In this document: positions 1,454 to 64,000 of the stretch, piece after piece
How positions within the stretch are numbered: position 1 is the first letter of the stretch
How the letters are laid out: every line of letters begins with the position of its first letter
Assembly (NCBI GenBank): GCA_964350935.1
Contig: CAYGLL010000004.1
Coordinates: 9,267-73,266, forward strand
Reading direction: 5' to 3'
DNA length: 64,000 bases
From: an uncultured Candidatus Saccharibacteria bacterium
Lineage (GTDB): Bacteria > Patescibacteriota > Minisyncoccia > Phycocordibacterales > CAYGLL01
Made by a program: the position numbers and the translations under genes
The notes under the pieces: model-generated
Database searches by the model: none
The model's input: the letters and a program-made list of their open reading frames with translations, nothing else
What the model was told of the DNA's origin: nothing

Positions 1454-1657
1454 TTATCGACGTTTATACGGACGCTCCCGGGCAATCATCTTGGCGATTA
1501 GTTGCTCGGGTTTGAACAGGGACGTATCAATCGGCTGAAGTGGCGGTGGGTTACCAGGTTCCGGTGCCTCGTCAACTGCTCTTTGCATGGCAGCAAACCA
1601 GTTGCGAGATTTCTCTAGTCTTCTGCGTTTCGGAGGTTTTTCAGTCAGTGTGTTCAT
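1454..1657 (-). CDS. hypothetical small basic protein (ATG start internal to TTG-initiated ORF)
   Basis: ORF only; the 1454..1720 ORF begins with TTG, first ATG at 1657. Confidence 0.25.
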   Translation of the reverse strand: MNTLTEKPPKRRRLEKSRNWFAAMQRAVDEAPEPGNPPPLQPIDTSLFKPEQLIAKMIARERPYKRR

Positions 1658-1776
1658 GACAATGTGTAAGAACGGTGCGTTTAAGGCGCAGGTTGGTTTT
1701 TCTAAACAGAAGAGTAACAAAAAAATACTGCTTTGTCAAATAAGGTTGCAGTGAAAAAAACAGTTTATGAAATTGT

Positions 1777-11582: not shown

Positions 11583-11716
11583 ATGAGTCTATTATAGCCC
11601 AGCATCTTCTTCTGTGTATGTCTTCATTGTGAACAGTGAGGCGCTTGTTGAGTCATATTTTAAACTTGTTGAGGGGATATGGACGAGCGGGATTTATTTT
11701 GAGATACTAAGCATTA

Positions 11717-54820: not shown

Positions 54821-55810
54821 CTAATACAACTTCGTGCCGAGGCGGGCGTGGACAAGGGTCATTTTCTTTTCGGCGATAGCGCGGGCTTTTTCGCCGCCAG
54901 CTTTGAGGACATCGAGAACCGCGGCGCGGTTGTGCTCGAGTTCACTGCGGCGGTTACGAAGTGGAGTTACGAATTTAATGAGATCGGCGATAAGAGCCTC
55001 TTTGAGGTCTTTGTACTTTCCTCGTTTGTTGACATAGAGTTTCTCAAGTTCAGCTTCGGGACGGAACAGTTTGTGTATCTCGTAGACGTTGGTCGGTGTG
55101 TCTCCAGATGAGTCGGTAACGATCGACATGACGAGTTTCTTTATCTCCTCGTCGGTCGCAAACAGTGGGATTGTATTTTTGTAGCTCTTGGACATCTTCT
55201 GGCCATCAATTCCCGGAACAGTCGCAACATCGGCGAAGATCATCGGCGCGGGCAGGCGGAATGTCTCACCAAAAATACGATTGAATTTTTCGGCCGTGTC
55301 GCGAGCAATCTCAATATGTTGTTTTTGATCTTGCCCCACCGGCACGACATCGGCGTCATACAGCAAAATATCCGCCGCCATGAGCATTGGGTAGTTGAAC
55401 GTGCCCACCGAAAGCTCTTTGTTCTTGGCTTCGGCGTCTTTGAAGGCGTGGGCGCGCATGAGGTATGGCATGGTCGTGATGCAGTCGAATATCCATGCAA
55501 GTTCGGCATGTGAGGCGATGTCGGATTGTTTGAAAATAGTGACCTTGTTCGGGTCGAGGCCGATAGCGAGGTAATCGAGAGCAACGCCCATGATCATCTC
55601 ACTCATCTCCTCTTTGTTCTGGACGCTCGTGAGGGCGTGGAGGTCGGCAATAAATATGTAGCAATCATACTTCTCTTGAAGTTCAACAAACTGCCTCATC
55701 GCGCCGAAATAATTGCCAATATGAGGCCTACCCGTGGGTTTGATCCCCGAGAGCATAGTCTTCTTAGACTCTGATTCCGATTTTATTGATTTGTCCGTTT
55801 TTGACGGCAT
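54821..55810 (-). CDS. trpS: tryptophanyl-tRNA synthetase
   Basis: HIGNY (HIGH) and KMSKS motifs; start placed at MPSKTDKS (55810) because the longer ORF would run through the upstream terminator hairpin; MLSGIKPTG at 55756 is an alternative start. Confidence 0.85.
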   Translation of the reverse strand: MPSKTDKSIKSESESKKTMLSGIKPTGRPHIGNYFGAMRQFVELQEKYDCYIFIADLHALTSVQNKEEMSEMIMGVALDYLAIGLDPNKVTIFKQSDIASHAELAWIFDCITTMPYLMRAHAFKDAEAKNKELSVGTFNYPMLMAADILLYDADVVPVGQDQKQHIEIARDTAEKFNRIFGETFRLPAPMIFADVATVPGIDGQKMSKSYKNTIPLFATDEEIKKLVMSIVTDSSGDTPTNVYEIHKLFRPEAELEKLYVNKRGKYKDLKEALIADLIKFVTPLRNRRSELEHNRAAVLDVLKAGGEKARAIAEKKMTLVHARLGTKLY

Positions 55811-55845
55811 GGCGAAATCGTAGCACAAAAGTGGCTTAGGATAAA
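55677..55845 (-). repeat. direct-repeat copy A: native trpS promoter region and first roughly 45 codons
   Basis: roughly 80-85% identical to 61630..61795 (for example ttgccaatatgagg..cccgtgggtttga..agcatagtcttcttagac..gatttgtccgtttttgacggcatg). Confidence 0.6.
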
Positions 55846-55893: not shown

Positions 55894-57453
55894 TTACTTT
55901 TTCAGAAACCCTTTCGCTTCCCGCTCAAATTGCGGCAGCGATTTGAGTAGATTGGTGCGAGCGGACTGATTTTTTCGGATAGCGAGAAGCCACGATCCAA
56001 TCGGAGTGGAAGAGAATCTCCTCATCTGTCCAGATGACCAGTTTTCCTGCTTTCTTGAAAGCGGATCACACACCACGAAACCGTGCTGATTGTAACCTGA
56101 AACCACAACCGCATGAAGCATACCGCACATGCCGGCAAGAATGACTAGGTAGTCATCGTTCAAAAGTGAAGTAATGAGTTCGGGTGTAATCGGCACACCA
56201 TTTCTCACAACGGCACATGGACCACAATTATCAATGAAGCCTTGATACTCTGCCATGAGTGCCGAAAATGTTTCAGGATCAAGATAAGCGTTGCCATTTT
56301 GGAACATGCCGCTTTCGGAATGAATCAGTTGAGTTTCAAGTCCGTGGCAGTCAGCATACTTCTGTAATCCGGAGAAATGCGTTCCGGGTATGAGTTTTGC
56401 CGCACTTGCCTCGTAAATGGCATGTTCTGTTTTTACTGAAAGTTCCGTCAGTTCCAAGTGGTGGAGAATCATAGTGAGGCTCGCCGCACCACAGGTGTAT
56501 GGAGTTGACTGTCGGAATGGAGTTACATTTTTGACCATAAGTTCCTTTCTATAAACGTGAAGTTTTTCTAATCCTTCGGCCACCTGATTATCGTCAAGAG
56601 CGTAGATCGCTCCTGTGTTCAGAATAATCTTCGTGTCGTTAAGTAGGGTCAGAACAGCCCGTCTCAGGACATACCCTGAAATCCCTACCAATGTAGTAAG
56701 CATGGAGTACTCGTCGGTATTGTCATAGGTAATTGTCCTGGCAAGGGCTGAGACGTACGGGCGTTCCATCGCAAAGTAAAAGTGCTCGACACGTTTCGCG
56801 ACGCTCCCCCGTGTCTTACTGATTCGCTCTCGGATAACCTTGGGCGAACTATTTCTGAAGGCACTCAAATTTGCAAGTCGTCCTTCAAAAATGAGTTTGT
56901 CACCCGCATGGTATTTCTGCAGAAGGTCCTCAGTTTTTTTGCGTTTGCGCCCAGCAAGAAACAGTTCCAGGTGATCGGCCATGTAGGTCGCCCAAAAAGA
57001 AGGAGTTGGTGGCGTCAGAAGAAGTGTTGCCTCTGCGTCACTCAACATCATTTTTTGTTGCAGCCAGCTGGTCCAATACTCGATGTGCTTTTTGATCGCG
57101 GCTGTGGGAATAAGTGTCGCCTGGTCGATTAAGGATGCGACAGCATACATTTTGCCAAGTTCCACGACGCGCTCCTCGGTTAGATCAAATACGGTGCGGG
57201 GCAGAAGATCATTCAGCGCAGGTTCAAGGAGTTCTTCAAAGAAAACATTGTGCCAGTTCCACCGGTTGACGAGTTCTTCATAAAATGTCACCGGATCTTT
57301 GCGGGCCTGTTCTTCAACTAAGTTCCGAAGTAAGGGGTTTGATTGTGCAAAGTAGCGATTCGCGCCCAACAGTTCTTTGGTCAGAATCTCATCGATACTG
57401 CCCTTCCAACCATCAGGAATAAGTACGGATTTACGGTTTTTGGGTGTATTCAT
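55894..57453 (-). CDS. protein with C-terminal C39-like papain-fold cysteine peptidase domain and uncharacterised N-terminal domain
   Basis: C-terminal Q..TCGAASLTMIL (Gln oxyanion/Cys), H (LHAVVVSG) and D (VVCDP) spacing typical of C39 double-glycine leader peptidases; N-terminal 300 aa unassigned. Confidence 0.55.
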   Translation of the reverse strand: MNTPKNRKSVLIPDGWKGSIDEILTKELLGANRYFAQSNPLLRNLVEEQARKDPVTFYEELVNRWNWHNVFFEELLEPALNDLLPRTVFDLTEERVVELGKMYAVASLIDQATLIPTAAIKKHIEYWTSWLQQKMMLSDAEATLLLTPPTPSFWATYMADHLELFLAGRKRKKTEDLLQKYHAGDKLIFEGRLANLSAFRNSSPKVIRERISKTRGSVAKRVEHFYFAMERPYVSALARTITYDNTDEYSMLTTLVGISGYVLRRAVLTLLNDTKIILNTGAIYALDDNQVAEGLEKLHVYRKELMVKNVTPFRQSTPYTCGAASLTMILHHLELTELSVKTEHAIYEASAAKLIPGTHFSGLQKYADCHGLETQLIHSESGMFQNGNAYLDPETFSALMAEYQGFIDNCGPCAVVRNGVPITPELITSLLNDDYLVILAGMCGMLHAVVVSGYNQHGFVVCDPLSRKQENWSSGQMRRFSSTPIGSWLLAIRKNQSARTNLLKSLPQFEREAKGFLKK

Positions 57454-57498
57454 GTTGTAAAGACCTTTTAAATGAGACTACTCCACGCCATCATTAAG

Positions 57499-58167
57499 TC
57501 AATGCTTTTTGAGAAACGCGATAGTTTTTTCAAGTAGTTCATCTTCGTCTTTTTCTCCCATGAGGGAATGGGATGAATTATTAAGAGTGTACATAGTTGC
57601 ATTAGACAGGATTTCAGCCAGACTCATTGAATTTTGAAGCGGAACAACGGTGTCCTTGCTGCCGTGCAGAATGCAAATGGGAATGCGCAACGAAGTAGCC
57701 CACGTCCGGTTAATTTCTATATCAAGCACATTGCGAACATTTTTAAGCTCAACCGAGCTCAGTTTACTTACGGTTTCCTCGCCGGAGGTTACTCCAATCG
57801 CCGGAGCCCAGAGTGTTAAAGCGCGTATCAGTGGGTTACGGTATGAAATTAAAAGTGTCGCTCCAAAACTTTTTCCAATAGCAGTAAATTGCTTGAACCC
57901 TTGTTGAGAAAAATAATTGAGAATAGCGTCAAGCTCTTGATGATAATAGTTGATAGTTGAGCGCTCTAGTTCGGACTGATTCTGCCACATGTCTACTCGA
58001 GCAAGCGGCATTCCCTCACGGGTAAAATAAGATTCTAGCCGGGCATATTTGTCTGTAGTGGCCACGCCGCTGATTCCTGCTATAAAAAGCACTAAGTTTT
58101 TTGCTTGATCAGTCTTTATGTCGTTTAGGGCAACAAGACTATTACTTATTTTGATTATATTTTGCAT
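57499..58167 (-). CDS. alpha/beta-fold hydrolase
   Basis: GKSFG nucleophile elbow (GxSxG), ...HGSKD... His region. Confidence 0.55.
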   Translation of the reverse strand: MQNIIKISNSLVALNDIKTDQAKNLVLFIAGISGVATTDKYARLESYFTREGMPLARVDMWQNQSELERSTINYYHQELDAILNYFSQQGFKQFTAIGKSFGATLLISYRNPLIRALTLWAPAIGVTSGEETVSKLSSVELKNVRNVLDIEINRTWATSLRIPICILHGSKDTVVPLQNSMSLAEILSNATMYTLNNSSHSLMGEKDEDELLEKTIAFLKKH

Positions 58168-58171
58168 ATCT

Positions 58172-59422
58172 TTATGGAAAAGGATGAGGAAGTTTTTGAG
58201 ACCTAGGCTTAATTCCTCTTCGAAGCGCCTGCCCCAGCTTTGGTAGTATGTGCGATTTATTTAAATCAATCATTCGAGGTATGACAACACGAGCAATTGT
58301 GAACCCGCTGTCCTTAAGGTCTGTCGAAGTTATGTCTTTATAATAGACCTCAAATTTTTTTTCCGAAAGTTTATTAAAAAGCGAACGTTGAGACAAAGTG
58401 GTTGCTTTATAAGGAATTTTTTTTACAATCTTAGTCCGTAAAAGATCGAAATTTTCACCCTGATAAAAAAGAAAGTGCTCAAACAGCGCGGTAATATCTT
58501 TCGGCCTATCCTTCCTGTATTCTAACAAATCCATTGAATAGAAATAGGTAAAGAGGGCCTCTATAAGAGCCTTTTCAACTGCTCGGTTTGAATCAAGATG
58601 CGAACACGAACCTATTCCAAAATGGTAGCCCTTCTTTCTACTTTTTGTCCATACGTATGCGCCGAAAGTTGGAACAGATACTGCCGCAGGAAGTATGAAT
58701 AGTTCGAGATTATAGTATTTTTGTATTTTTTTAATGAATTTTTTAAGTTTGAGGGGGAGTGTCTCAGTATCCACACTATCAAGTTCGGTATCTGAATAGT
58801 GCCGCATCATTTGTGCATCACGCTCGATTATTTCTAACGTTCCACCGAGAATTGAGTCAGCCAGTTTTTTTCCAGCCGCGATCCCCGTTGAAGTTGTTTC
58901 TGCTATTTTTTCAAGGTGAAATGGCAAGTAGACAAGTGCCGCCGGCCAGTACAGTTCTTTTTTTCTCTGCGCAGACTTTATTTTTACCCAGTGAATTAGA
59001 TCTGTTGTGGCATTTTTAAAATGAACAGGAGTTGTTGTGGGTCCGTATATATTCAAATCAATTTTTGAAGGCGCACAAGATGAGTCAAGATCTTTATGTT
59101 TTGACAAAAGAAGTTCTGGGCGAGAATAGAAAGACATCGCGTATCGTTCAAGTGATTCTCCAATGCATGCGAATAGTGCTGATTTTTTATTGGACGCAAC
59201 ACCTAACCCGCCCGAAGAAAGTTCCTCGGTTTGATTACTGTTAAGTACGGTTATTTTTGCTGTTAGTGATTGAAAAGAGTTTAGGCCGAATCGGCTAAGC
59301 ATGTCTCGTTCCAGGATTGCGTTTATGTGTCCGGTAAACTTGCTGATCAAGGGTTCAAGCTGTTTTCGCTCTCTCTTTGTCAGAAACCTCAATTTTTTTG
59401 TTGAAGTGTGAATATTATTCAT
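58172..59422 (-). CDS. YcaO-domain protein
   Basis: ALFACIGESLERY and GTLEIIERDA ATP/Mg-binding signatures of YcaO cyclodehydratase-type domain; ATG at 59422 (MNNIH) gives ATGAATAA start/stop coupling with the upstream ORF. Confidence 0.65.
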   Translation of the reverse strand: MNNIHTSTKKLRFLTKRERKQLEPLISKFTGHINAILERDMLSRFGLNSFQSLTAKITVLNSNQTEELSSGGLGVASNKKSALFACIGESLERYAMSFYSRPELLLSKHKDLDSSCAPSKIDLNIYGPTTTPVHFKNATTDLIHWVKIKSAQRKKELYWPAALVYLPFHLEKIAETTSTGIAAGKKLADSILGGTLEIIERDAQMMRHYSDTELDSVDTETLPLKLKKFIKKIQKYYNLELFILPAAVSVPTFGAYVWTKSRKKGYHFGIGSCSHLDSNRAVEKALIEALFTYFYSMDLLEYRKDRPKDITALFEHFLFYQGENFDLLRTKIVKKIPYKATTLSQRSLFNKLSEKKFEVYYKDITSTDLKDSGFTIARVVIPRMIDLNKSHILPKLGQALRRGIKPRSQKLPHPFP

Positions 59423-59834
59423 ACACCGGTAGTGGGCGTATCGTGTGCAGTTTGATGAGTTTTCCGGTATTTCCAAGTTCGAGCATGTACCTTTTTCCAA
59501 AGACTTGGACAAATTTTTTCCTGAGAATTTTTTGAAGTACCTGTGACCTGTTCGGATTTATGAGTTTTATTTTTTTTGAGTCAATAAACGAAGATGAAGA
59601 AATGCGTTTAAGGATAAGTTCAAAATCTGCTAAATTTTTAAGCGTTGGCCCAACTAAGTAAGAATGCGAAAAACGTGCAATAAAGATCGCCGGGACCGTT
59701 TCAGCTCCAGCATCCTTACCCCTTTTTCCTAGCCGGACTTGTTCTTTTGCCATTTTTCTTAACACAACATCACCATTGTGTGGTGATGTTGTGTTCTGCT
59801 TAGGCGGTGCAGAGGAGGTCAAACTTTTTAGCAA
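59415..59834 (-). CDS. hypothetical basic protein, translationally coupled to ycaO-like gene
   Basis: ORF (TTG at 59834; first ATG about 59753); no family recognised; stop overlaps the YcaO start. Confidence 0.35.
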   Translation of the reverse strand: MLKSLTSSAPPKQNTTSPHNGDVVLRKMAKEQVRLGKRGKDAGAETVPAIFIARFSHSYLVGPTLKNLADFELILKRISSSSFIDSKKIKLINPNRSQVLQKILRKKFVQVFGKRYMLELGNTGKLIKLHTIRPLPVYE

Positions 59835-60018
59835 ATTTTTTCATTGTGTATTTGCTTAGTCCGATTGATAATAAAGTTCGAAGCTAAGTATAAGTGTATC
59901 ACTGTTGAAATATGTTGCAAGTTAATAACAACATGAATTGATTATCAATATTTAAGTTATGTATGGCGGTGTGTTTCAGAATTAAGGTTAAAGCCTAGTG
60001 TACTCATTTCAGTTCTGT

Positions 60019-60552
60019 TTATCGGAAAAAAAATTTACTAATTAACTTCGGCAGATCCCCTTTTGCCCTATCACCTCCTTTTATCTTTTCCAAAAGTTCA
60101 CTGGGCAAAAGCCAGAAAAATTCAATAAAATCTCTTGTGTTGTAGCGCGGATCAGCATTCAAAGAAATCTCGTACACGTTCATAAAAGCAGACACACCGT
60201 GCTCGTGCGGTGTTAAGTGACCGAGCAATTTCCACGTTGTAGTTTCAGTGTCTACGTTTAGTTCTTCTGCCGTCTCGCGTTTAAATGCCTGGTCGTATGT
60301 TTCCCCGCTTTCTACGTGTCCACCCATACTCATATCAAGGCAGAGCGGAAATATTCGTTTGTCTACCGATCTGCGCGGAATCCACATTTTTCCTTCAGAG
60401 TTTACGACAAATGCGTTTACTACTCGGAAATTTGAAAGACCTTCGGCGTAAATTTCTTTTCGAGATTTTTTGCCAATCACCTTGTCATTTCGGTCCACAA
60501 GGTCGAGATATTCTTCTTGCACAGGTTGAATCTTGTTAGTTTCAGGTACCAT
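60019..60552 (-). CDS. Nudix hydrolase
   Basis: Nudix box GGHVESGETYDQAFKRETAEELNV (Gx5Ex7REuxEExGu). Confidence 0.75.
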   Translation of the reverse strand: MVPETNKIQPVQEEYLDLVDRNDKVIGKKSRKEIYAEGLSNFRVVNAFVVNSEGKMWIPRRSVDKRIFPLCLDMSMGGHVESGETYDQAFKRETAEELNVDTETTTWKLLGHLTPHEHGVSAFMNVYEISLNADPRYNTRDFIEFFWLLPSELLEKIKGGDRAKGDLPKLISKFFFR

Positions 60553-60692: not shown

Positions 60693-61037
60693 ATGAAAAC
60701 ACTCGAAATTAACGGAGAACTCTGGTTCTACCTCGGCGAGCCTTTTGCCGTACGGTGCGATGATCAATGTGGCCTGACCGCTGTCGGAAACATCAGGCGG
60801 GCCAAAGAAGGTAAGCCTCGCAAAGTTTGGATCCACAGTCTCGCGGATGCCTTTGCTTGCGCTGAAGAGTGGGCCGCTAATAACGACCACCTTTCGGGGT
60901 ATGTTTTGGACTTCGCCAATCGCACTGTTTACTACGACAACGATCGGGCACTCCGACAGTTGAAGAGGAAGATCTTCCCTCAACGTAACCTCGTCGGCTA
61001 CTTCACAACCTTTACCCAAAGGTCGTTCAAGAAGTAA
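60693..61037 (+). CDS. hypothetical protein (higher-GC segment)
   Basis: ORF; plus strand preferred because of strong downstream plus-strand terminator; no family recognised. Confidence 0.3.
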   Translation: MKTLEINGELWFYLGEPFAVRCDDQCGLTAVGNIRRAKEGKPRKVWIHSLADAFACAEEWAANNDHLSGYVLDFANRTVYYDNDRALRQLKRKIFPQRNLVGYFTTFTQRSFKK

Positions 61038-61070
61038 CCGAACAAAACACAGCCAACAGAAAGGTAATGG

Positions 61071-61490
61071 ATGAAAACAATTATGAAAGTCCCGCATCCT
61101 GCGGGCATCGCGATTAATAATCGCCCTCTCCTCGACGCCTTCATCGAGCTCTGTCTCAGGATCGATAACATGGGAACCCTCCGGGACGAGTTCAAAGGAA
61201 TCGATCAGATCGAAATCACCGGCGAGGAATCACAAAATTCCGAACCGGAGTGGGGTCAGGCGTTAGGCATCAGGTGCCATTTGAAGATCCCTGGGGTTGA
61301 ACCAGCGATTGGAAACGCGTTCCTCTCTGTCGGCACCTTCCTCTTTGTCACGAAGGGCCGAGCGCGTGCTTCTCATGCATGTGGGCCCACCATCGAAGGG
61401 CAAATCAAGGATGTTCTTGATCCCTTAGCCGCAAGCCTCGCCATGAGCTGTCTCGAGTTGGCTCAAAGGTTTGCACCCACAGCCACGTAG
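61071..61490 (+). CDS. hypothetical protein (higher-GC segment)
   Basis: ORF followed by strong terminator; no family recognised. Confidence 0.3.
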   Translation: MKTIMKVPHPAGIAINNRPLLDAFIELCLRIDNMGTLRDEFKGIDQIEITGEESQNSEPEWGQALGIRCHLKIPGVEPAIGNAFLSVGTFLFVTKGRARASHACGPTIEGQIKDVLDPLAASLAMSCLELAQRFAPTAT

Positions 61491-61504: not shown

Positions 61505-61537
61505 ACGAGACCCGATCAACCGATCGGGTCTCTTTTT
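61505..61537 (+). terminator. Rho-independent terminator
   Basis: gagacccgatc-aacc-gatcgggtctc perfect 11-bp hairpin followed by ttttttat. Confidence 0.75.
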
Positions 61538-61629
61538 TATGGGACATAGAGTGAAATAAACCCACTCGTCCATATCTCCGCAGCAAGCTGACGAGGTATA
61601 TCTAGAATTAATCTCCGCGAGGCTCAACC

Positions 61630-61795
61630 TCGCGGAGACATAAGCCTCATTGCTCCAAAATAGTTGCCAATATGAGGGCGGCCCGTGGGTTTGACCCCAC
61701 TAAGCATAGTCTTCTTAGACCATTCTATATGATTTGTCCGTTTTTGACGGCATGCGGGAATAGTAGCAAAAAAAGCCTAATTTGAAGTTCGGTGG
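61630..61795 (-). pseudogene. direct-repeat copy B: degraded duplicate of the trpS 5' end (MPSKTDKS... then frameshift/stop)
   Basis: encodes MPSKTDKSYRMV* and, out of frame, LSGVKPTGRPHIGNYFGAMR; lies immediately downstream of the tRNA-Trp terminator. Confidence 0.6.
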
Positions 61796-61796
61796 A

Positions 61797-61830
61797 TTTA
61801 AAAAAAGAAAACTCCCAGGTGGGAGTTTTA
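61797..61830 (-). terminator. Rho-independent terminator downstream of tRNA-Trp
   Basis: aaaactcccacctgggagtttt hairpin followed on minus strand by ctttttttt. Confidence 0.7.
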
Positions 61831-61834
61831 GGGT

Positions 61835-61908
61835 TGGCAGGCACGGAAGGAATCGAACCCTCGGTAAGGATTTTGGAGATCCCTGGTTTACCACTAACCG
61901 ACGTGCCC
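61835..61908 (-). tRNA. tRNA-Trp (anticodon CCA)
   Basis: hand fold of GGGCACGTCGGTTAGTGGTAAACCAGGGATCTCCAAAATCCTTACCGAGGGTTCGATTCCTTCCGTGCCTGCCA: 7-bp acceptor stem (G1-U72 wobble), D-arm GGTT/AACC, anticodon loop CTCCAAA (U33, C34C35A36, A37), T-arm GAGGG-TTCGATT-CCTTC, discriminator G73, encoded CCA. Confidence 0.8.
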
Positions 61909-61945: not shown

Positions 61946-62731
61946 TTACTTCTTCGAGTCAAGTCCACCAGGCATTTTTCGTGCGGCAAAGCCGAAGATA
62001 GATTCGTAGTTTGTACTACCAAAGATTACGGGATAAAAGTCATACACTGCCCTGATTTCTATTTTGTCTGAGGTGCGGGCGAAAATCTCCCCAGTTTTGA
62101 TCTGCTTAAAATTTTGGACATGCGGTTCAAGATGAGCTCCCGCCGGTTTAGCGACACTTTCAAAAACTTCATAGTATTCTGTTTGAAACCCAAAAGGCTT
62201 CACCGGCGAGATTAAACCGTAGTATGAAAAAATAAACTCAACCCCCTCAGTTGTTTTAATCACTGTTTTGCTATGAGTGTCTTTTCCCATTTCAAAAGCA
62301 ATGCCGATGCGGGCGCATGAAATAAGCGCCCTGTCTGGTTTCATGTTCATAAAAAGTACATTGCGCGGGGAAAGTTTTTGAAGTAGCTCTTTCGTAGCCG
62401 GATCTAGTTTGGTAACAATAACAGTATCTTCGAGCCCGCTTTTGGTTGAGTGAATATCGATAACGACATCATAGGCTGAAACAACTCGCACGAGTTCGAA
62501 AGCGCGTTTCTCCTCATATGTTCCGTCCGCTTTTCCCGGAAAAACCCGATTTAAGTCCTGATCAATATAGCGCTTTCCCTCTTGGTAGGCGCGTTCATTG
62601 GCGATCTGTACATCTACAGAGTCCCCGATAAGTTTTGGGTATTTTTTTAAAATTTCATCCTTAACCCTAACACCCACAAGCTCATCACCATGAGTCAGGA
62701 TATTGAGAAGTATTTTGAGCGCCATTTTCAC
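61946..62731 (-). CDS. succinylglutamate desuccinylase/aspartoacylase (AstE/AspA) family zinc hydrolase
   Basis: hallmark motifs LTHGDELVG (HG.E) and DLNRVFPG near N-terminus; 261 aa. Confidence 0.6.
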   Translation of the reverse strand: MKMALKILLNILTHGDELVGVRVKDEILKKYPKLIGDSVDVQIANERAYQEGKRYIDQDLNRVFPGKADGTYEEKRAFELVRVVSAYDVVIDIHSTKSGLEDTVIVTKLDPATKELLQKLSPRNVLFMNMKPDRALISCARIGIAFEMGKDTHSKTVIKTTEGVEFIFSYYGLISPVKPFGFQTEYYEVFESVAKPAGAHLEPHVQNFKQIKTGEIFARTSDKIEIRAVYDFYPVIFGSTNYESIFGFAARKMPGGLDSKK

Positions 62732-62779
62732 ATCATAACAAAAAACGGAGGGAAAATTAATTCCCTCCGTCTGAAGCGC

Positions 62780-63562
62780 CTATGCGCAAAGATCACGGCA
62801 CAGCGTCGCCCATTCAACGATTTGATCAAGCGAATCCGTAGCTCCAAACATCCGAAACTCGATTGTCCCGTGGACTGAGATGCGAATAAGTGTCCAGCAT
62901 CGGCGCGGGTCATCCGAAAAAGAATGCACCACTGATCGATCATAGAACTGGCTGAGGTCCTCGATTTTGTTCGGCATGTACTGTGTTGCCATAACCCGGT
63001 AGAGAGCCATCCGTTGCCCAGATGAATTGTCTCCGAGTGCGATCAGGCGCTCCGTGTGCTTGATAGCACAGTTGTAAGCGTTAATCGCCGCCGACAAGTT
63101 GGACATACCAACGTGAATGTGCGTTGCTGCCACACGACAGGCTGCCGAAAGAACTTCGTGCGGCATGTTTTTGGTAATCACTTGGTATCGTCCCGTTGGG
63201 TCAGGATAGATATCAAGGGGCATCGACTCGGAGGCTATTTCCAGGTTTACACGTCGTGCACCGACAACATGGTCGGCCCAATCGAGGGTTCTTTCGCTGT
63301 CAGAAAGTTTCGCATGTAGCTCGCCTATTTGGCATGGACCGATTTTTGACTCTAGCTGACATGCTGAGAGCTCGTACCCGAAATTCGAGTAATCCTGCGC
63401 AAGTCTCCCGCTTTCACGAAGACAATCAAGATATTTTTCTGCAAGCGGAGCAACCGCACCCGTTTTCGGGTCAATCGTAAACTGTTCCCGCTCAACACCA
63501 ACGCATCCGATTTTTTCCTGATCGAATTTGAATCGTTCAAAGAACTTTTCTTTTTCTGTCAT
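62780..63562 (-). CDS. GCS2-family carboxylate-amine ligase (YbdK/glutamate-cysteine ligase family 2-like), short form
   Basis: GVEREQF, GYELSACQLE, THIHVG and IEFRMFGATD align with GCS2 conserved blocks; 260 aa is shorter than typical YbdK. Confidence 0.5.
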   Translation of the reverse strand: MTEKEKFFERFKFDQEKIGCVGVEREQFTIDPKTGAVAPLAEKYLDCLRESGRLAQDYSNFGYELSACQLESKIGPCQIGELHAKLSDSERTLDWADHVVGARRVNLEIASESMPLDIYPDPTGRYQVITKNMPHEVLSAACRVAATHIHVGMSNLSAAINAYNCAIKHTERLIALGDNSSGQRMALYRVMATQYMPNKIEDLSQFYDRSVVHSFSDDPRRCWTLIRISVHGTIEFRMFGATDSLDQIVEWATLCRDLCA

Positions 63563-63862
63563 AGTTCGCCTTTCAGAGTTCGAGTCCTCTTCTCATAAGA
63601 AAACCCGTCCACAGCGCGCGTAACTTTTGTTACCTACGCTAAGGACGGATTTACCGTGGTGCCACCTTGTTTCGAGGGAGTATTCACCCTTCGCACTTTG
63701 CTATCTTTATGTCCATTAAGGACCAACAATAGCTTTCCTGATAACGGAGGAATCCGGATTTCCACTCATGCAGAAACCCTCTTGTCGTCGGCCTGTAGGA
63801 CAGACGACTACCATGACCCAGCCCCTTGTCCCTTAAGACAAAGGATCACGATATAGAGCTTC
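63563..63862 (-). promoter_or_regulatory. candidate T-box riboswitch leader (Trp-specific?) with promoter and intrinsic terminator upstream of GCS2-like gene
   Basis: minus strand: TTGACA-17-TATGCT promoter (plus coordinates 63867-63895); T-box-like core AAGGUGGCACCACGG (plus 63654-63668) against consensus AGGGUGGNACCGCGG; UGGC bulge complementary to GCCA of adjacent tRNA-Trp; terminator CCGUCC...GGACGG then GUUUUCUU just before the ATG; possible specifier UGG-A about plus 63762. Confidence 0.4.
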
Positions 63863-64000
63863 CAAAAGCATAGTACTGATGTAAAAATGTGTCAACTTGA
63901 TATTGCATCTTTGCGTGGTAGTTTGAAAACTGAAAGAGTTCGTTGTAATTATGATAACAAACAAATCCGTACCGATAACTGACCCGGCAGTAATAGCTAG

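Follow-up and report, generated by a model that had tools for sequence, protein, structure and literature searches.

A leader on the minus strand of the analysed stretch of 64,000 nucleotides (the window), upstream of a gene for a short carboxylate-amine ligase, is very probably a functional, transcription-attenuating T-box riboswitch for uncharged tRNA-Trp. It represents a stripped-down, Trp-specific type of T-box that is conserved across ultrasmall Patescibacteria-type bacteria. A first-pass annotation of this DNA had claimed a T-box leader at this place, and T-box core, antiterminator and overlapping terminator are all present; the sequence features it had named were recovered at their coordinates, the position of the specifier being the sole correction. 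Binding of the tRNA and read-through into the ligase gene are predicted by analogy with known T-boxes. The leader and its putative promoter are located as follows:

63597..63862, minus strand: T-box leader, upstream of the ligase gene
63867..63895, minus strand: predicted sigma-70-like promoter (TTGACA 63890..63895, 17-nt spacer, TATGCT 63867..63872)

In a consensus scan the promoter agrees with the consensus at 10 of 12 positions; the leader transcript is predicted to start at ~63860.

The switching part of the leader is made up of two overlapping elements:

63641..63668, minus strand: T-box and antiterminator, AAGG-UGGCACC-ACGG-UAAAU-CCGU-CCUU, from the Rfam alignment
63597..63648, minus strand: intrinsic terminator, stem 63605..63648, U-tract UUUUCUU 63597..63603

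The T-box motif itself, AAGGUGGCACCACGG (63654..63668, minus strand), has two mismatches to AGGGUGGNACCGCGG and reads UGGC at UGGN (63661..63664). The helices AAGG/CCUU and ACGG/CCGU flank the 7-nt bulge UGGCACC, so that the T-box sequence (conserved form AGGGUGGNACCGCG) provides the bulge within the antiterminator helix; over 43 loci these pairs are 92% paired and show compensatory changes. In agreement with the earlier proposal of an intrinsic terminator ahead of the first ATG, a hairpin of -28.6 kcal/mol (RNAfold) ends 41 nt upstream of the ligase start codon. CCGUCC (63643..63648) serves both as the 3' strand of the antiterminator and as the 5' arm of the terminator, therefore the two folds are mutually exclusive. 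Of 48 related leaders, 43 have a terminator that overlaps the antiterminator (median -31 kcal/mol), and the GC-rich hairpin with its U-tract ends about 40-100 nt before the start codon there (median ~70 nt).

The 5' domain of the class combines a short Stem I, whose 5-nt bulge on the 3' side ends in an invariant UGG, with an additional hairpin, Stem II and a IIA/B pseudoknot. In the window, the decoding domain and the elements that follow it are:

63779..63858, minus strand: closing helix P0, CUCU (63855..63858) with AGAG (63779..63782)
63810..63852, minus strand: truncated Stem I, proximal helix AUCGUGAU (63845..63852) with GUCAUGGU (63810..63817), distal hairpin 63823..63844
63818..63822, minus strand: specifier bulge GCUGG with the codon UGG (Trp) at 63818..63820
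63784..63808, minus strand: hairpin P2 between Stem I and Stem II, outside the canonical T-box plan
63757..63778, minus strand: Stem II, GGUUUC/GAAAUC, with the conserved loop UGCAUGAGUG; class consensus UGCR..AGUG
63735..63756, minus strand: Stem IIA (CGG/CCG), F-box-like CCGUUA (63742..63747) and IIB pseudoknot
63711..63724 and 63673..63693, minus strand: linker hairpin and Stem III (Stem III by Rfam alignment; RNAfold)

Covariation over 43 loci argues for the fold of the 5' domain. In the 5' domain as a whole 92.5% of cells are paired, with compensatory changes in 29 of 36 pairs; none of 500 shuffles equalled the real domain, and slid controls were 34-54% paired. The proximal helix of Stem I is 97% paired (compensatory changes in 6 of 8 pairs), the distal helix 96% (5 of 6), and Stem II, which aligns to the Rfam Stem II, 98% (6 of 6). 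P0 encloses Stem I and P2 and thereby gives rise to a three-way junction; it covaries over 43 species (e.g. AUCC/GGAU, ACCU/AGGU, ACCC/GGGU), with changes on both sides in all four pairs and 83% of cells paired, and is also given by RNAfold in the window. P2 is 81% paired with compensatory changes in 4 of 4 pairs and is missing from L036 and L069. Stem IIA is invariant, and the IIB pseudoknot, in which the loop UUCCU (63748..63752) pairs with AGGAA (63735..63739), is 86.5% paired with compensatory changes in 4 of 5 pairs; both agree with the positions of the Rfam model, and the window leader thus has Stem II, a IIA/B pseudoknot with F-box, and Stem III. The conserved Stem I spans ~43 nt and, beyond the specifier bulge, consists of a terminal hairpin alone. 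It has no distal platform for the tRNA elbow; the AG bulge and distal docking loop of a long Stem I are absent, and a non-exhaustive look at Stem I showed no GA/K-turn motif.

The Rfam model RF00230 matches the leader at 63638..63797 (minus strand) with 41.9 bits (E=6.4e-7 in a 6-kb search, 6.8e-6 in the whole window). The Rfam match suggested in the first-pass annotation hence exists, but lies below the gathering score of 93 bits, because the canonical Stem I is missing; 85 Stem I positions of the model are deleted in the alignment. This score and the absence of the canonical K-turn, AG bulge and elbow-docking distal loop count against the leader being a T-box. A decaying, non-functional remnant, with a low score resulting from the loss of Stem I, would be consistent with 41.9 bits against a threshold of 93 and the deletion of the entire Stem I in the alignment. 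However, the non-canonical 5' domain is conserved and covaries over more than 100 sequences, the specifier is invariant, and nearly all copies retain an intact terminator/antiterminator pair. We consider a remnant exceedingly unlikely, and the covariation among the sequences already contradicts it.

A covariance model of the 5' domain that was built from metagenome sequences and L069, and never from the window, gave exactly one match in the 64 kb, at 63728..63860 (minus strand; 74.3 bits, E=1e-23). Rfam in E-value mode and the models R1 and R2 found no second T-box in the 64-kb window, e.g. upstream of either trpS gene. At the Rfam gathering threshold, none of 12 related loci passes and only tRNAs are found there, so the class is not findable by Rfam at this setting. 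The same leader is present at 50 of 80 species-level loci encoding the same ligase and in 68 independent metagenome sequences.

The first-pass annotation had proposed as specifier a UGG-A sequence (GAGUGGAAAU, 63762..63765), the sole one in the leader. We reject it because it lies inside the conserved Stem II loop motif AGUGG; the expected presentation of UGG in a specifier loop is seen in the Stem I bulge at 63818..63820, not at UGG-A. UGGG is invariant in all 43 aligned loci, and in a metagenome search the specifier column reads UGG in 64 of 70 model matches. The same column is UCG ahead of serA-like 2-hydroxyacid dehydrogenase genes, where the leader architecture is the same. Further UGG leaders stand upstream of genes for TrpRS, TrpB-like PALP and TrpD-like Glycos_transf_3 proteins, and others upstream of genes for an EamA transporter, an ELFV amino-acid dehydrogenase and an Asp/Glu-type racemase. 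The codon thus corresponds to the amino acid of the regulated genes, UGG for the Trp genes and UCG for the serA-like genes. Synteny favours tryptophan independently: 30 of 50 T-box loci have TrpRS no more than 6 kb away, and about 10 have tRNA-Trp at a distance of up to 2 kb. UGG leaders also precede genes for three more proteins, of 213, 430 and 285 aa, for which no Pfam family was obtained, and PDB sequence searches with the 213-aa and 430-aa proteins gave nothing usable. The base that follows the specifier is G63817, which closes an invariant U.G pair; an unpaired A is usual here, a deviation that counts against the assignment.

At the variable position N of UGGN, 33 loci have C and 16 have U, and none has A or G. 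In the window leader N is C, complementary to the discriminator base G73 of the neighbouring tRNA-Trp; of 19 neighbouring tRNA-Trp genes, 17 likewise have G73. The Trp specificity and the pairing of N with G73 had been read from the window earlier and hold up. The TBDB paper gives the same C/U split at N for Trp T-boxes (PMC7778990).

That the specifier is instead read in another frame (GGG for Gly, UUG or CUG for Leu), or that the switch is translational, appears scarcely credible. GGG is likewise invariant within UGGG, and T-boxes with a short Stem I have been described as translational (PMC11297988). Against the other frames, C or U at N pairs with G73 of tRNA-Trp, and the -1 frame varies between UUG, CUG and AUG and is therefore not conserved. 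Bacterial tRNA-Gly generally has U73, which would need N=A. Furthermore, the targets are Trp genes, and the +1 frame of the UCG leaders before serA-like genes is CGG, a codon for Arg. The GGG and UUG/CUG frames were rejected on the identity of N, frame variability and the regulon. A translational switch is opposed by the GC-rich hairpin and U-tract, whose overlap with the antiterminator holds for 43 of 48 leaders, and in the window no ribosome-binding site was seen to be sequestered.

The tryptophan-specific, transcriptional T-box is followed on the minus strand by an unusual pair of genes:

62780..63562, minus strand: ligase gene, 260 aa, YbdK/GCS2-fold carboxylate-amine ligase, a short form without the C-terminal ~100 aa of YbdK
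62737..62772, minus strand: terminator-like hairpin and U-run directly after the ligase stop, 11 nt before the AstE-like ATG (terminator scan)
61946..62725, minus strand: AstE/AspA-family zinc deacylase-like gene, 259 aa, with the motifs HGDE, DLNR and DIHST

Control of unusual cargo had been one of two options in the first-pass annotation, and the terminator/antiterminator switch indeed stands ahead of a GCS2-type ligase gene. NCBIfam glutamate-cysteine ligase and YbdK models match the ligase with E=1.9e-14 to 2.7e-10, all under their cut-offs; TIGR02050 reaches 40 bits (cut-off 176) and Amidoligase_2 21 bits (cut-off 22). Pfam reports no PF04107 match for the window ligase, and this family is precomputed for many homologues. 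Since the ligase alignment, run as a profile against the PDB, yielded no more than a marginal YbdK-like match (1tt4, E=0.012), a fold search was needed. With an AlphaFold model (pLDDT 96), the top Foldseek match was YbdK (1r8g, TM 0.79, E=1.8e-10), followed by plant glutamate-cysteine ligase and then glutamine synthetases. Acidic, His and Arg residues are invariant over 30 homologues.

The AstE-like protein matches Pfam AstE_AspA_cat (PF24827) with 69 bits (cut-off 25) and the NCBIfam aspartoacylase model with E=4e-21, under its cut-off; its PDB matches are aspartoacylases. We take its motifs to have the roles that they have in aspartoacylase (zinc-site H-G-x-E and D-I-H-S). Directly after the ligase, 34 of 50 loci have an AstE-like gene and 10 a GGACT/AIG2-like gene. 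Most likely the ligase forms a gamma-glutamyl-type amide, which would later be cleaved by the adjacent AstE-type or GGACT-type enzyme and so secure tryptophan. A ligase and a deacylase that simply make and break the same amide would form a futile cycle, which counts against this view of the cargo.

The surroundings of the two genes contain tRNA-Trp and several trpS sequences:

61835..61908, minus strand: tRNA-Trp, anticodon CCA, G73, encoded CCA (ARAGORN and Rfam), the predicted riboswitch ligand
61808..61829, minus strand: terminator after tRNA-Trp (terminator scan)
61644..61773, minus strand: trpS 5' relic, a decayed copy including ~20 nt of upstream region
54821..55810, minus strand: intact trpS (TrpRS; TIGR00233 291 bits, cut-off 177), 5.8 kb downstream of the relic
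63951..64000, plus strand: start of a second trpS paralogue, divergent to the leader and cut by the window end

The ligase, AstE-like gene, tRNA-Trp and trpS 5' relic listed for this locus in the first-pass annotation are all borne out. The relic lies behind the tRNA-Trp terminator, is 80% identical to 55693..55830 and has eight frame-breaking gap positions. The intact trpS has no T-box of its own. The second paralogue is complete on contig L081 (2639-4003, minus strand) and encodes 454 aa with an N-terminal extension of ~120 aa (TIGR00233 263 bits).

The other option of the first-pass annotation was an ancestral T-box-trpS unit into which the ligase, AstE-like and tRNA-Trp genes were later inserted, so that the T-box would really serve trpS. 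It would fit the trpS 5' relic, which is co-directional behind the tRNA-Trp gene, and the frequent proximity of trpS genes to T-box loci. Five metagenomic leaders of the class also stand directly before TrpRS, but the conserved partner of the T-box is the ligase, which is located directly behind it in 50 of 80 species-level loci. Most relatives have trpS upstream or on the opposite strand; those that share the AstE-tRNA-Trp order, such as L002 and L028, have the downstream TrpRS on the opposite strand, as have L003, L070 and L073, where no T-box was matched. In the window, terminators follow both the ligase and the tRNA-Trp genes, and relic and intact trpS share no more than 80% identity. The insertion in this genome is the ~5.8-kb segment between tRNA-Trp and trpS, with YcaO, hydrolase, C39-like and Nudix genes, and does not lie between the T-box and trpS. 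The idea of an insertion is hence unsupported because T-box and ligase form the conserved unit, and we regard a T-box serving trpS as highly improbable.

As to the extent of its control, the T-box might act on the ligase, the AstE-like gene and tRNA-Trp as one operon, with the ligand encoded in its own regulated transcript. The three genes are co-directional with gaps of 11 nt (hairpin U-run to AstE-like ATG) and 37 nt (AstE-like stop to tRNA), and the AstE-tRNA-Trp adjacency is repeated in at least eight relatives. A promoter search for the two downstream genes gave nothing convincing, only weak matches such as TTAATT-17-TATGAT, which overlaps the ligase terminator. On the other hand, the strong terminator-like hairpin and U-run directly behind the ligase stop makes a co-regulation of the AstE-like gene and tRNA-Trp uncertain; 28 of 50 related loci have a comparable hairpin with U4 behind the ligase, compared with 33 of 500 random windows. 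A tRNA gene that relies on its own uncharged form would also be hard to start up, and there are other lineages whose tRNA-Trp gene lies upstream or on the opposite strand. Overall, a single operon seems rather doubtful.

For the ligase gene, the following mechanism is proposed. Transcription would start at the TTGACA/TATGCT promoter, and the 5' domain, with its P0/Stem I/P2 three-way junction, Stem II and IIA/B pseudoknot, would offer UGG (63818..63820) to the CCA anticodon. The 3' GCCA of an uncharged tRNA-Trp could then pair with UGGC (63661..63664) and stabilise the antiterminator, allowing read-through into the ligase gene. With the tRNA charged or absent, the more stable terminator (63605..63648) and its U-tract would form and stop transcription 41 nt before the ATG.

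T-box riboswitches are seen mainly as Gram-positive regulators, and the host organisms are thought to be incapable of making tryptophan. Within the literature searchable, no paper was found that links a T-box to the Candidate Phyla Radiation, Patescibacteria, Saccharibacteria or Parcubacteria. The present data point to a conserved T-box class in many Patescibacteria-type MAGs, which standard annotation misses because it scores under the Rfam threshold. Tentatively, the window leader may serve as type example for a class of transcriptional T-boxes that extends throughout the Patescibacteria, under the Rfam threshold in 13 of 13 loci tested, with a minimal three-way-junction decoding domain and no elbow contact. 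Its commonest target would be a short YbdK-fold ligase with an AstE/GGACT-type deacylase among tRNA-Trp and duplicated trpS genes, and the pair would provide an undescribed ATP-dependent route securing tryptophan in host-dependent ultrasmall bacteria. Such a route could be a gamma-glutamyl trap-and-release of imported Trp or the salvage of a conjugated precursor.

The class couples a short Stem I decoding module, hitherto described for translational T-boxes, to a transcription terminator, which bears on the amount of tRNA contact that a co-transcriptional T-box needs. Its invariant specifier acts as a function label that places the ligase/deacylase pair and several orphan genes in the tryptophan economy and makes them concrete candidates for enzymology. 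Riboswitches have been suggested as tools for expression in Patescibacteria (PMC11665869), and a native one would be directly useful for this.

In the use of a UGGN-bulge antiterminator against an intrinsic terminator, the leader resembles the canonical class I transcriptional T-boxes of Firmicutes (RF00230; e.g. B. subtilis tyrS and the Trp-specific trpS and rtpA leaders). It also shares with them Stem II, the IIA/B pseudoknot with F-box CCGUUA, Stem III, a codon that fits the regulated pathway and, as in Trp T-boxes, C/U at N opposite G73. In contrast to class I, it is without the long Stem I, K-turn, AG bulge and distal elbow platform, has its specifier in a 5-nt one-sided bulge followed by a G in a U.G pair, contains the additional P0 helix and P2 hairpin, and scores far under the Rfam threshold; host lineage and cargo (a YbdK-type ligase) differ as well.

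A short Stem I without elbow contact, together with Stem II and IIA/B, is also the arrangement of the class II translational ileS T-boxes of Actinobacteria, reportedly described for Mycobacterium tuberculosis by Sherwood, Grundy and Henkin in 2015. The platform of the new leader is a Rho-independent terminator, with the start region outside the switch helices, and not a Shine-Dalgarno sequestrator as in class II. Its specifier is UGG instead of AUC, phylum and regulated genes differ, and a P0/P2 three-way junction is not known for class II ileS T-boxes. Nor does the junction figure in the descriptions of that class consulted; there, the decoding module of Stem I, Stem II and IIA/B pseudoknot is reported to compensate for the missing elbow contact (PMC11297988). 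The minimal natural variant glyQS (B. subtilis, Geobacillus) recognises the anticodon and NCCA of its tRNA and acts through transcription antitermination, but retains a long Stem I and does without Stem II and IIA/B, the opposite of the new class.

Among the cargo, the ligase has the fold of YbdK/GCS2 (1r8g, 1tt4), plant glutamate-cysteine ligase and the glutamine synthetase-like gamma-glutamyl-amine ligases. It differs from YbdK in length (260 aa versus about 370), shares 14-17% identity with it and is under every curated family cut-off. No further GCS2 member is known to be controlled by a T-box, and literature searches gave zero matches. The second gene belongs, by Pfam membership, to the AstE/AspA deacylases (aspartoacylase, aminoacylase 3, succinylglutamate desuccinylase, DoeB) or, at other loci, to the GGACT/AIG2 gamma-glutamyl cyclotransferases, and the AstE-like protein is shorter than the characterised AstE/AspA enzymes. 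Both families act on an N-acyl or gamma-glutamyl amide and set an amine or amino acid free, and their unrelated folds substitute for each other at the same position behind the ligase (34 versus 10 loci).

In agreement with a first-pass annotation, which had proposed a T-box leader with an intrinsic terminator before the first ATG and a variable T-box base N complementary to G73 of the same-strand tRNA-Trp, the minus strand carries a leader of ~300 nt that terminates at the ATG of a ligase gene. The T-box itself (63597..63862, minus strand) and the neighbouring features are:

63890..63895 and 63867..63872, minus strand: sigma-70-like promoter (TTGACA, 17-nt spacer, TATGCT), upstream of the leader
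63654..63668, minus strand: T-box motif AAGGUGGCACCACGG, two mismatches
63641..63668, minus strand: antiterminator, AAGG/CCUU and ACGG/CCGU around the bulge UGGCACC, with CCGUCC (63643..63648) as 3' strand
63605..63648, minus strand: terminator hairpin, -28.6 kcal/mol, followed by UUUUCUU (63597..63603)
62780..63562, minus strand: 260-codon ligase gene
61835..61908, minus strand: tRNA-Trp (CCA anticodon), the sole tRNA gene in the window, with discriminator G73 and encoded CCA

As CCGUCC is both the 3' strand of the antiterminator and the 5' arm of the long hairpin, the two folds exclude each other; compared with shuffled versions of itself, the complete leader has a far more stable fold (z = -5.2). 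With G73 and an encoded CCA, the 3' end of the tRNA, GCCA, is complementary to UGGC in the leader, so N = C is matched as claimed. In the covariance check, the Rfam T-box model RF00230 gave a match (E = 6.4e-7 in a 6-kb search, 6.8e-6 in the whole window), with an alignment to 63638..63797 that spans Stem II, Stem IIA/B with CCGUUA, Stem III and the T-box. Its score of 41.9 bits, however, is far under the gathering score of 93, because all 85 Stem I positions of the model are deleted. The Rfam threshold was reached by none of the 12 related loci tested.

In place of the canonical Stem I, the leader class has a conserved 5' domain. Homologues of the ligase number in the hundreds, the named ones coming from Kaiserbacteria and the Patescibacteria group, and a scan of one genome per species gave 80 ligase loci from Paceibacterota, Moranbacteria, Kaiserbacteria, Nomurabacteria, Berkelbacteria, Buchananbacteria and other Patescibacteria-type MAGs. 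By these relatives, and thus indirectly, the window too is placed in this group. The element GGUGGNACC was found 100-700 nt 5' of the ligase in 47 of them, and these upstream sequences follow a clear common plan: a closing helix of 4 bp (P0), a short Stem I in which an 8-bp proximal helix and a distal hairpin are split by a one-sided 5-nt bulge, an extra hairpin (P2), Stem II with the loop UGCR..AGUG, Stem IIA (CGG/CCG, with CCGUAA or CCGUUA), and a pseudoknot of the IIA loop with downstream sequence. The Stem I bulge reads [A/G][U/C/A]UGG; the next base is a G, paired with a U, and both of these are invariant. In a plain MAFFT alignment of 43 sequences (model-fitted alignments lean to the structure of their model), 92.5% of the cells in the 5' domain are standard pairs and both sides change in 29/36 pairs, with compensatory changes in every helix, P0, P2 and the pseudoknot included; the antiterminator helices are likewise 92% paired. 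None of 500 shuffles reached the observed values for the 5' domain, and with partners slid by 1-3 columns only 34-54% pairing was obtained. Of the 80 loci, 50 gave a match upstream of their ligase with R1, a covariance model of this domain, which also matched once in the window; in one further locus (L004) the T-box core is present and the 5' domain is lost at the contig end, and in three more the sequence upstream is too short for a verdict. A second model, R2, trained on metagenome sequences and the related locus L069 only and never on the window, gave a single match in the 64 kb (63728..63860, minus strand; 74.3 bits, E = 1e-23), in which UGG occupies the bulge position.

The specifier is UGG, probably read by tRNA-Trp. 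UGGG is invariant at the bulge across the 43 sequences, whereas the UGG-A first put forward as candidate specifier (63762..63765) is a piece of the conserved loop of Stem II and does not act as specifier. Metagenome contigs were scanned with a Stem II/IIA pattern and the matches realigned with R1, yielding 70 matches, 68 from metagenome contigs and 2 from L069; the bulge column holds UGG in 64, UCG in 3, UCC in 1 and CGG in 1, and one is truncated at that point. The non-UGG leaders serve as a natural control for the specifier assignment. L069, a Kaiserbacteria MAG, has at 1524-1700 (plus strand) a second leader built on this plan, with GU-UCG-G and N = C, before a gene for a SerA-like D-2-hydroxyacid dehydrogenase, and L117, another locus, shows the same combination of UCG leader and SerA-like gene. 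Judged by its bulge, the L069 leader is serine-specific; with such leaders in both loci the class is not restricted to tryptophan. Other reading frames were considered. In the +1 frame the codon would be GGG (Gly); as bacterial tRNA-Gly has the discriminator U73, N would have to be A, and the serA leader would be read as one for Arg. The -1 frame lacks conservation. For the favoured UGG, N is C in 33 loci and U in 16, never A or G, and G73 is present in 17 of the 19 neighbouring tRNA-Trp genes; the same pattern is seen in TBDB, where 46% of Trp T-boxes have U opposite G73 (PMC7778990).

TrpRS genes lie at most 6 kb away in 30 of the 50 T-box loci, and tRNA-Trp at most 2 kb away in about ten. 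The same neighbours are kept in five loci lacking a detectable T-box (L003, L058, L064, L070, L073); by its neighbours, independently of the riboswitch, the ligase locus is tied to tryptophan decoding. Divergently from the T-box promoter runs a second TrpRS gene (63951..64000, plus strand, continued on contig L081:2639-4003(-); 454 aa with a ~120-aa N-terminal extension; TIGR00233, 263 bits), so two trpS paralogues flank the riboswitch unit in a small genome. Two TrpRS matches near the ligase also occur in several relatives (L001, L002, L040, L047, L018). At 16 loci, L007, L017, L019, L034, L040, L046, L047, L061, L065 and L071 among them, a fusion of chorismate mutase type II and a SAM-dependent methyltransferase (~380 aa) stands beside TrpRS and tRNA-Trp near the ligase.

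Between the tRNA-Trp and the intact trpS, the window contains:

61644..61773, after the tRNA-Trp terminator: trpS relic, 80% identity to the intact trpS 5' end (55693..55830), with frame-breaking gaps
61507..61532, plus strand: strong terminator
60693..61490, plus strand: two ORFs of 114 and 139 aa, without a Pfam match
60019..60552, minus strand: Nudix hydrolase
58172..59512, minus strand: SagD-type YcaO
57499..58167, minus strand: alpha/beta hydrolase
55894..57453, minus strand: 519-aa protein with a C39-like peptidase domain

The segment between the relic and the intact trpS is what was inserted. Its minus-strand genes (55894..60552) form a RiPP-like set, where GC content dips to 0.39 at 58-60 kb, and the two ORFs could be mobile-element cargo or a toxin-antitoxin pair. 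Directly after the relic lies a perfect 11-bp palindromic hairpin, UCUCCGCGAGG-UUGA-GCCUCGCGGAGA (61612..61638), and a nearby 35-nt stretch (61554..61587) recurs inverted at 11665..11699 (86% identity); both may mark where the inserted segment joins, or belong to a small family of repeats. The first-pass annotation had offered either an ancestral T-box-trpS unit with inserted genes or a T-box controlling unusual cargo. Since trpS is on the opposite strand or upstream in most relatives, the ancestral unit is not supported, although a T-box does precede TrpRS in five cases; the leader upstream of the ligase in 50/80 loci supports unusual cargo.

The ligase has a YbdK/GCS2 fold (AlphaFold model, pLDDT 96), with YbdK (1r8g; TM 0.79, E = 1.8e-10) as best PDB match, followed by plant glutamate-cysteine ligase and glutamine synthetases. 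NCBIfam glutamate-cysteine ligase models cover its full length with E-values down to 1.9e-14, all under their cut-offs. Its close structural relatives all activate the glutamate gamma-carboxyl. The next same-strand gene in the 50 T-box loci encodes an AstE/AspA-type zinc deacylase in 34 and a GGACT/AIG2-type gamma-glutamyl cyclotransferase in 10, unrelated folds that have in common the release of an amine from N-acyl or gamma-glutamyl amides. Two such folds behind the ligase point to a chemistry in which a gamma-glutamyl-type amide would be made and later cleaved; our best guess, of low confidence, is that tryptophan or a precursor is trapped or salvaged by a gamma-glutamyl-based route. The ligase stop is directly followed by a GC-rich terminator-like hairpin with a U-run (62737..62772, minus strand), 11 nt before the AstE-like ATG, hence the ligase may be the sole gene strictly under the T-box. 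Such a hairpin is found in 28 of 50 related loci versus 33 of 500 random windows, and could serve differential expression of ligase and deacylase or split them into two transcription units. Loci with it include L001, L002, L004, L008, L018, L028, L040 and L047.

Besides the ligase, UGG leaders precede genes for TrpRS (5 cases), the TrpD-like phosphoribosyltransferase family (8) and TrpB-like PLP enzymes (4), as well as Glu/Leu/Phe/Val-type amino-acid dehydrogenase, Asp/Glu-type racemases, an EamA transporter and some family-less proteins. Among the metagenomic contigs, the UGG leader is followed by a 213-240 aa protein without known family and then AstE-like (L147, L088), by AstE-like and then a 430 aa protein without known family (L143), by an Asp/Glu racemase (L116, L102) or by an ELFV dehydrogenase (L109). 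These gene sets suggest several alternative tryptophan-salvage routes under one riboswitch. In L079 (3195-3700, plus strand) the 5' domain is apparently split, a full Stem I with UGG bulge being followed by ~150 nt of AT-rich sequence and then by another, partial Stem I with Stem II; part of the leader seems to have been duplicated, or sequence inserted into it.

A hairpin overlapping the antiterminator 3' strand is present in 43 of 48 related leaders (median -31 kcal/mol); the U-run at its end lies 70 nt (median) before the ligase match begins, an arrangement of transcription attenuation. Sequence and comparisons show the anatomy itself; tRNA binding, transcription start and read-through are proposed by analogy with characterised T-boxes. 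Our literature search, of incomplete coverage, found no paper connecting T-boxes with Patescibacteria, CPR, Saccharibacteria or Parcubacteria. In the translational ileS T-boxes of Actinobacteria, a short Stem I makes no contact with the tRNA elbow, and Stem II and IIA/B compensate (PMC11297988). The decoding domain of the present class resembles theirs, but here the decoding module is joined to a terminator, and P0 and P2 are added.
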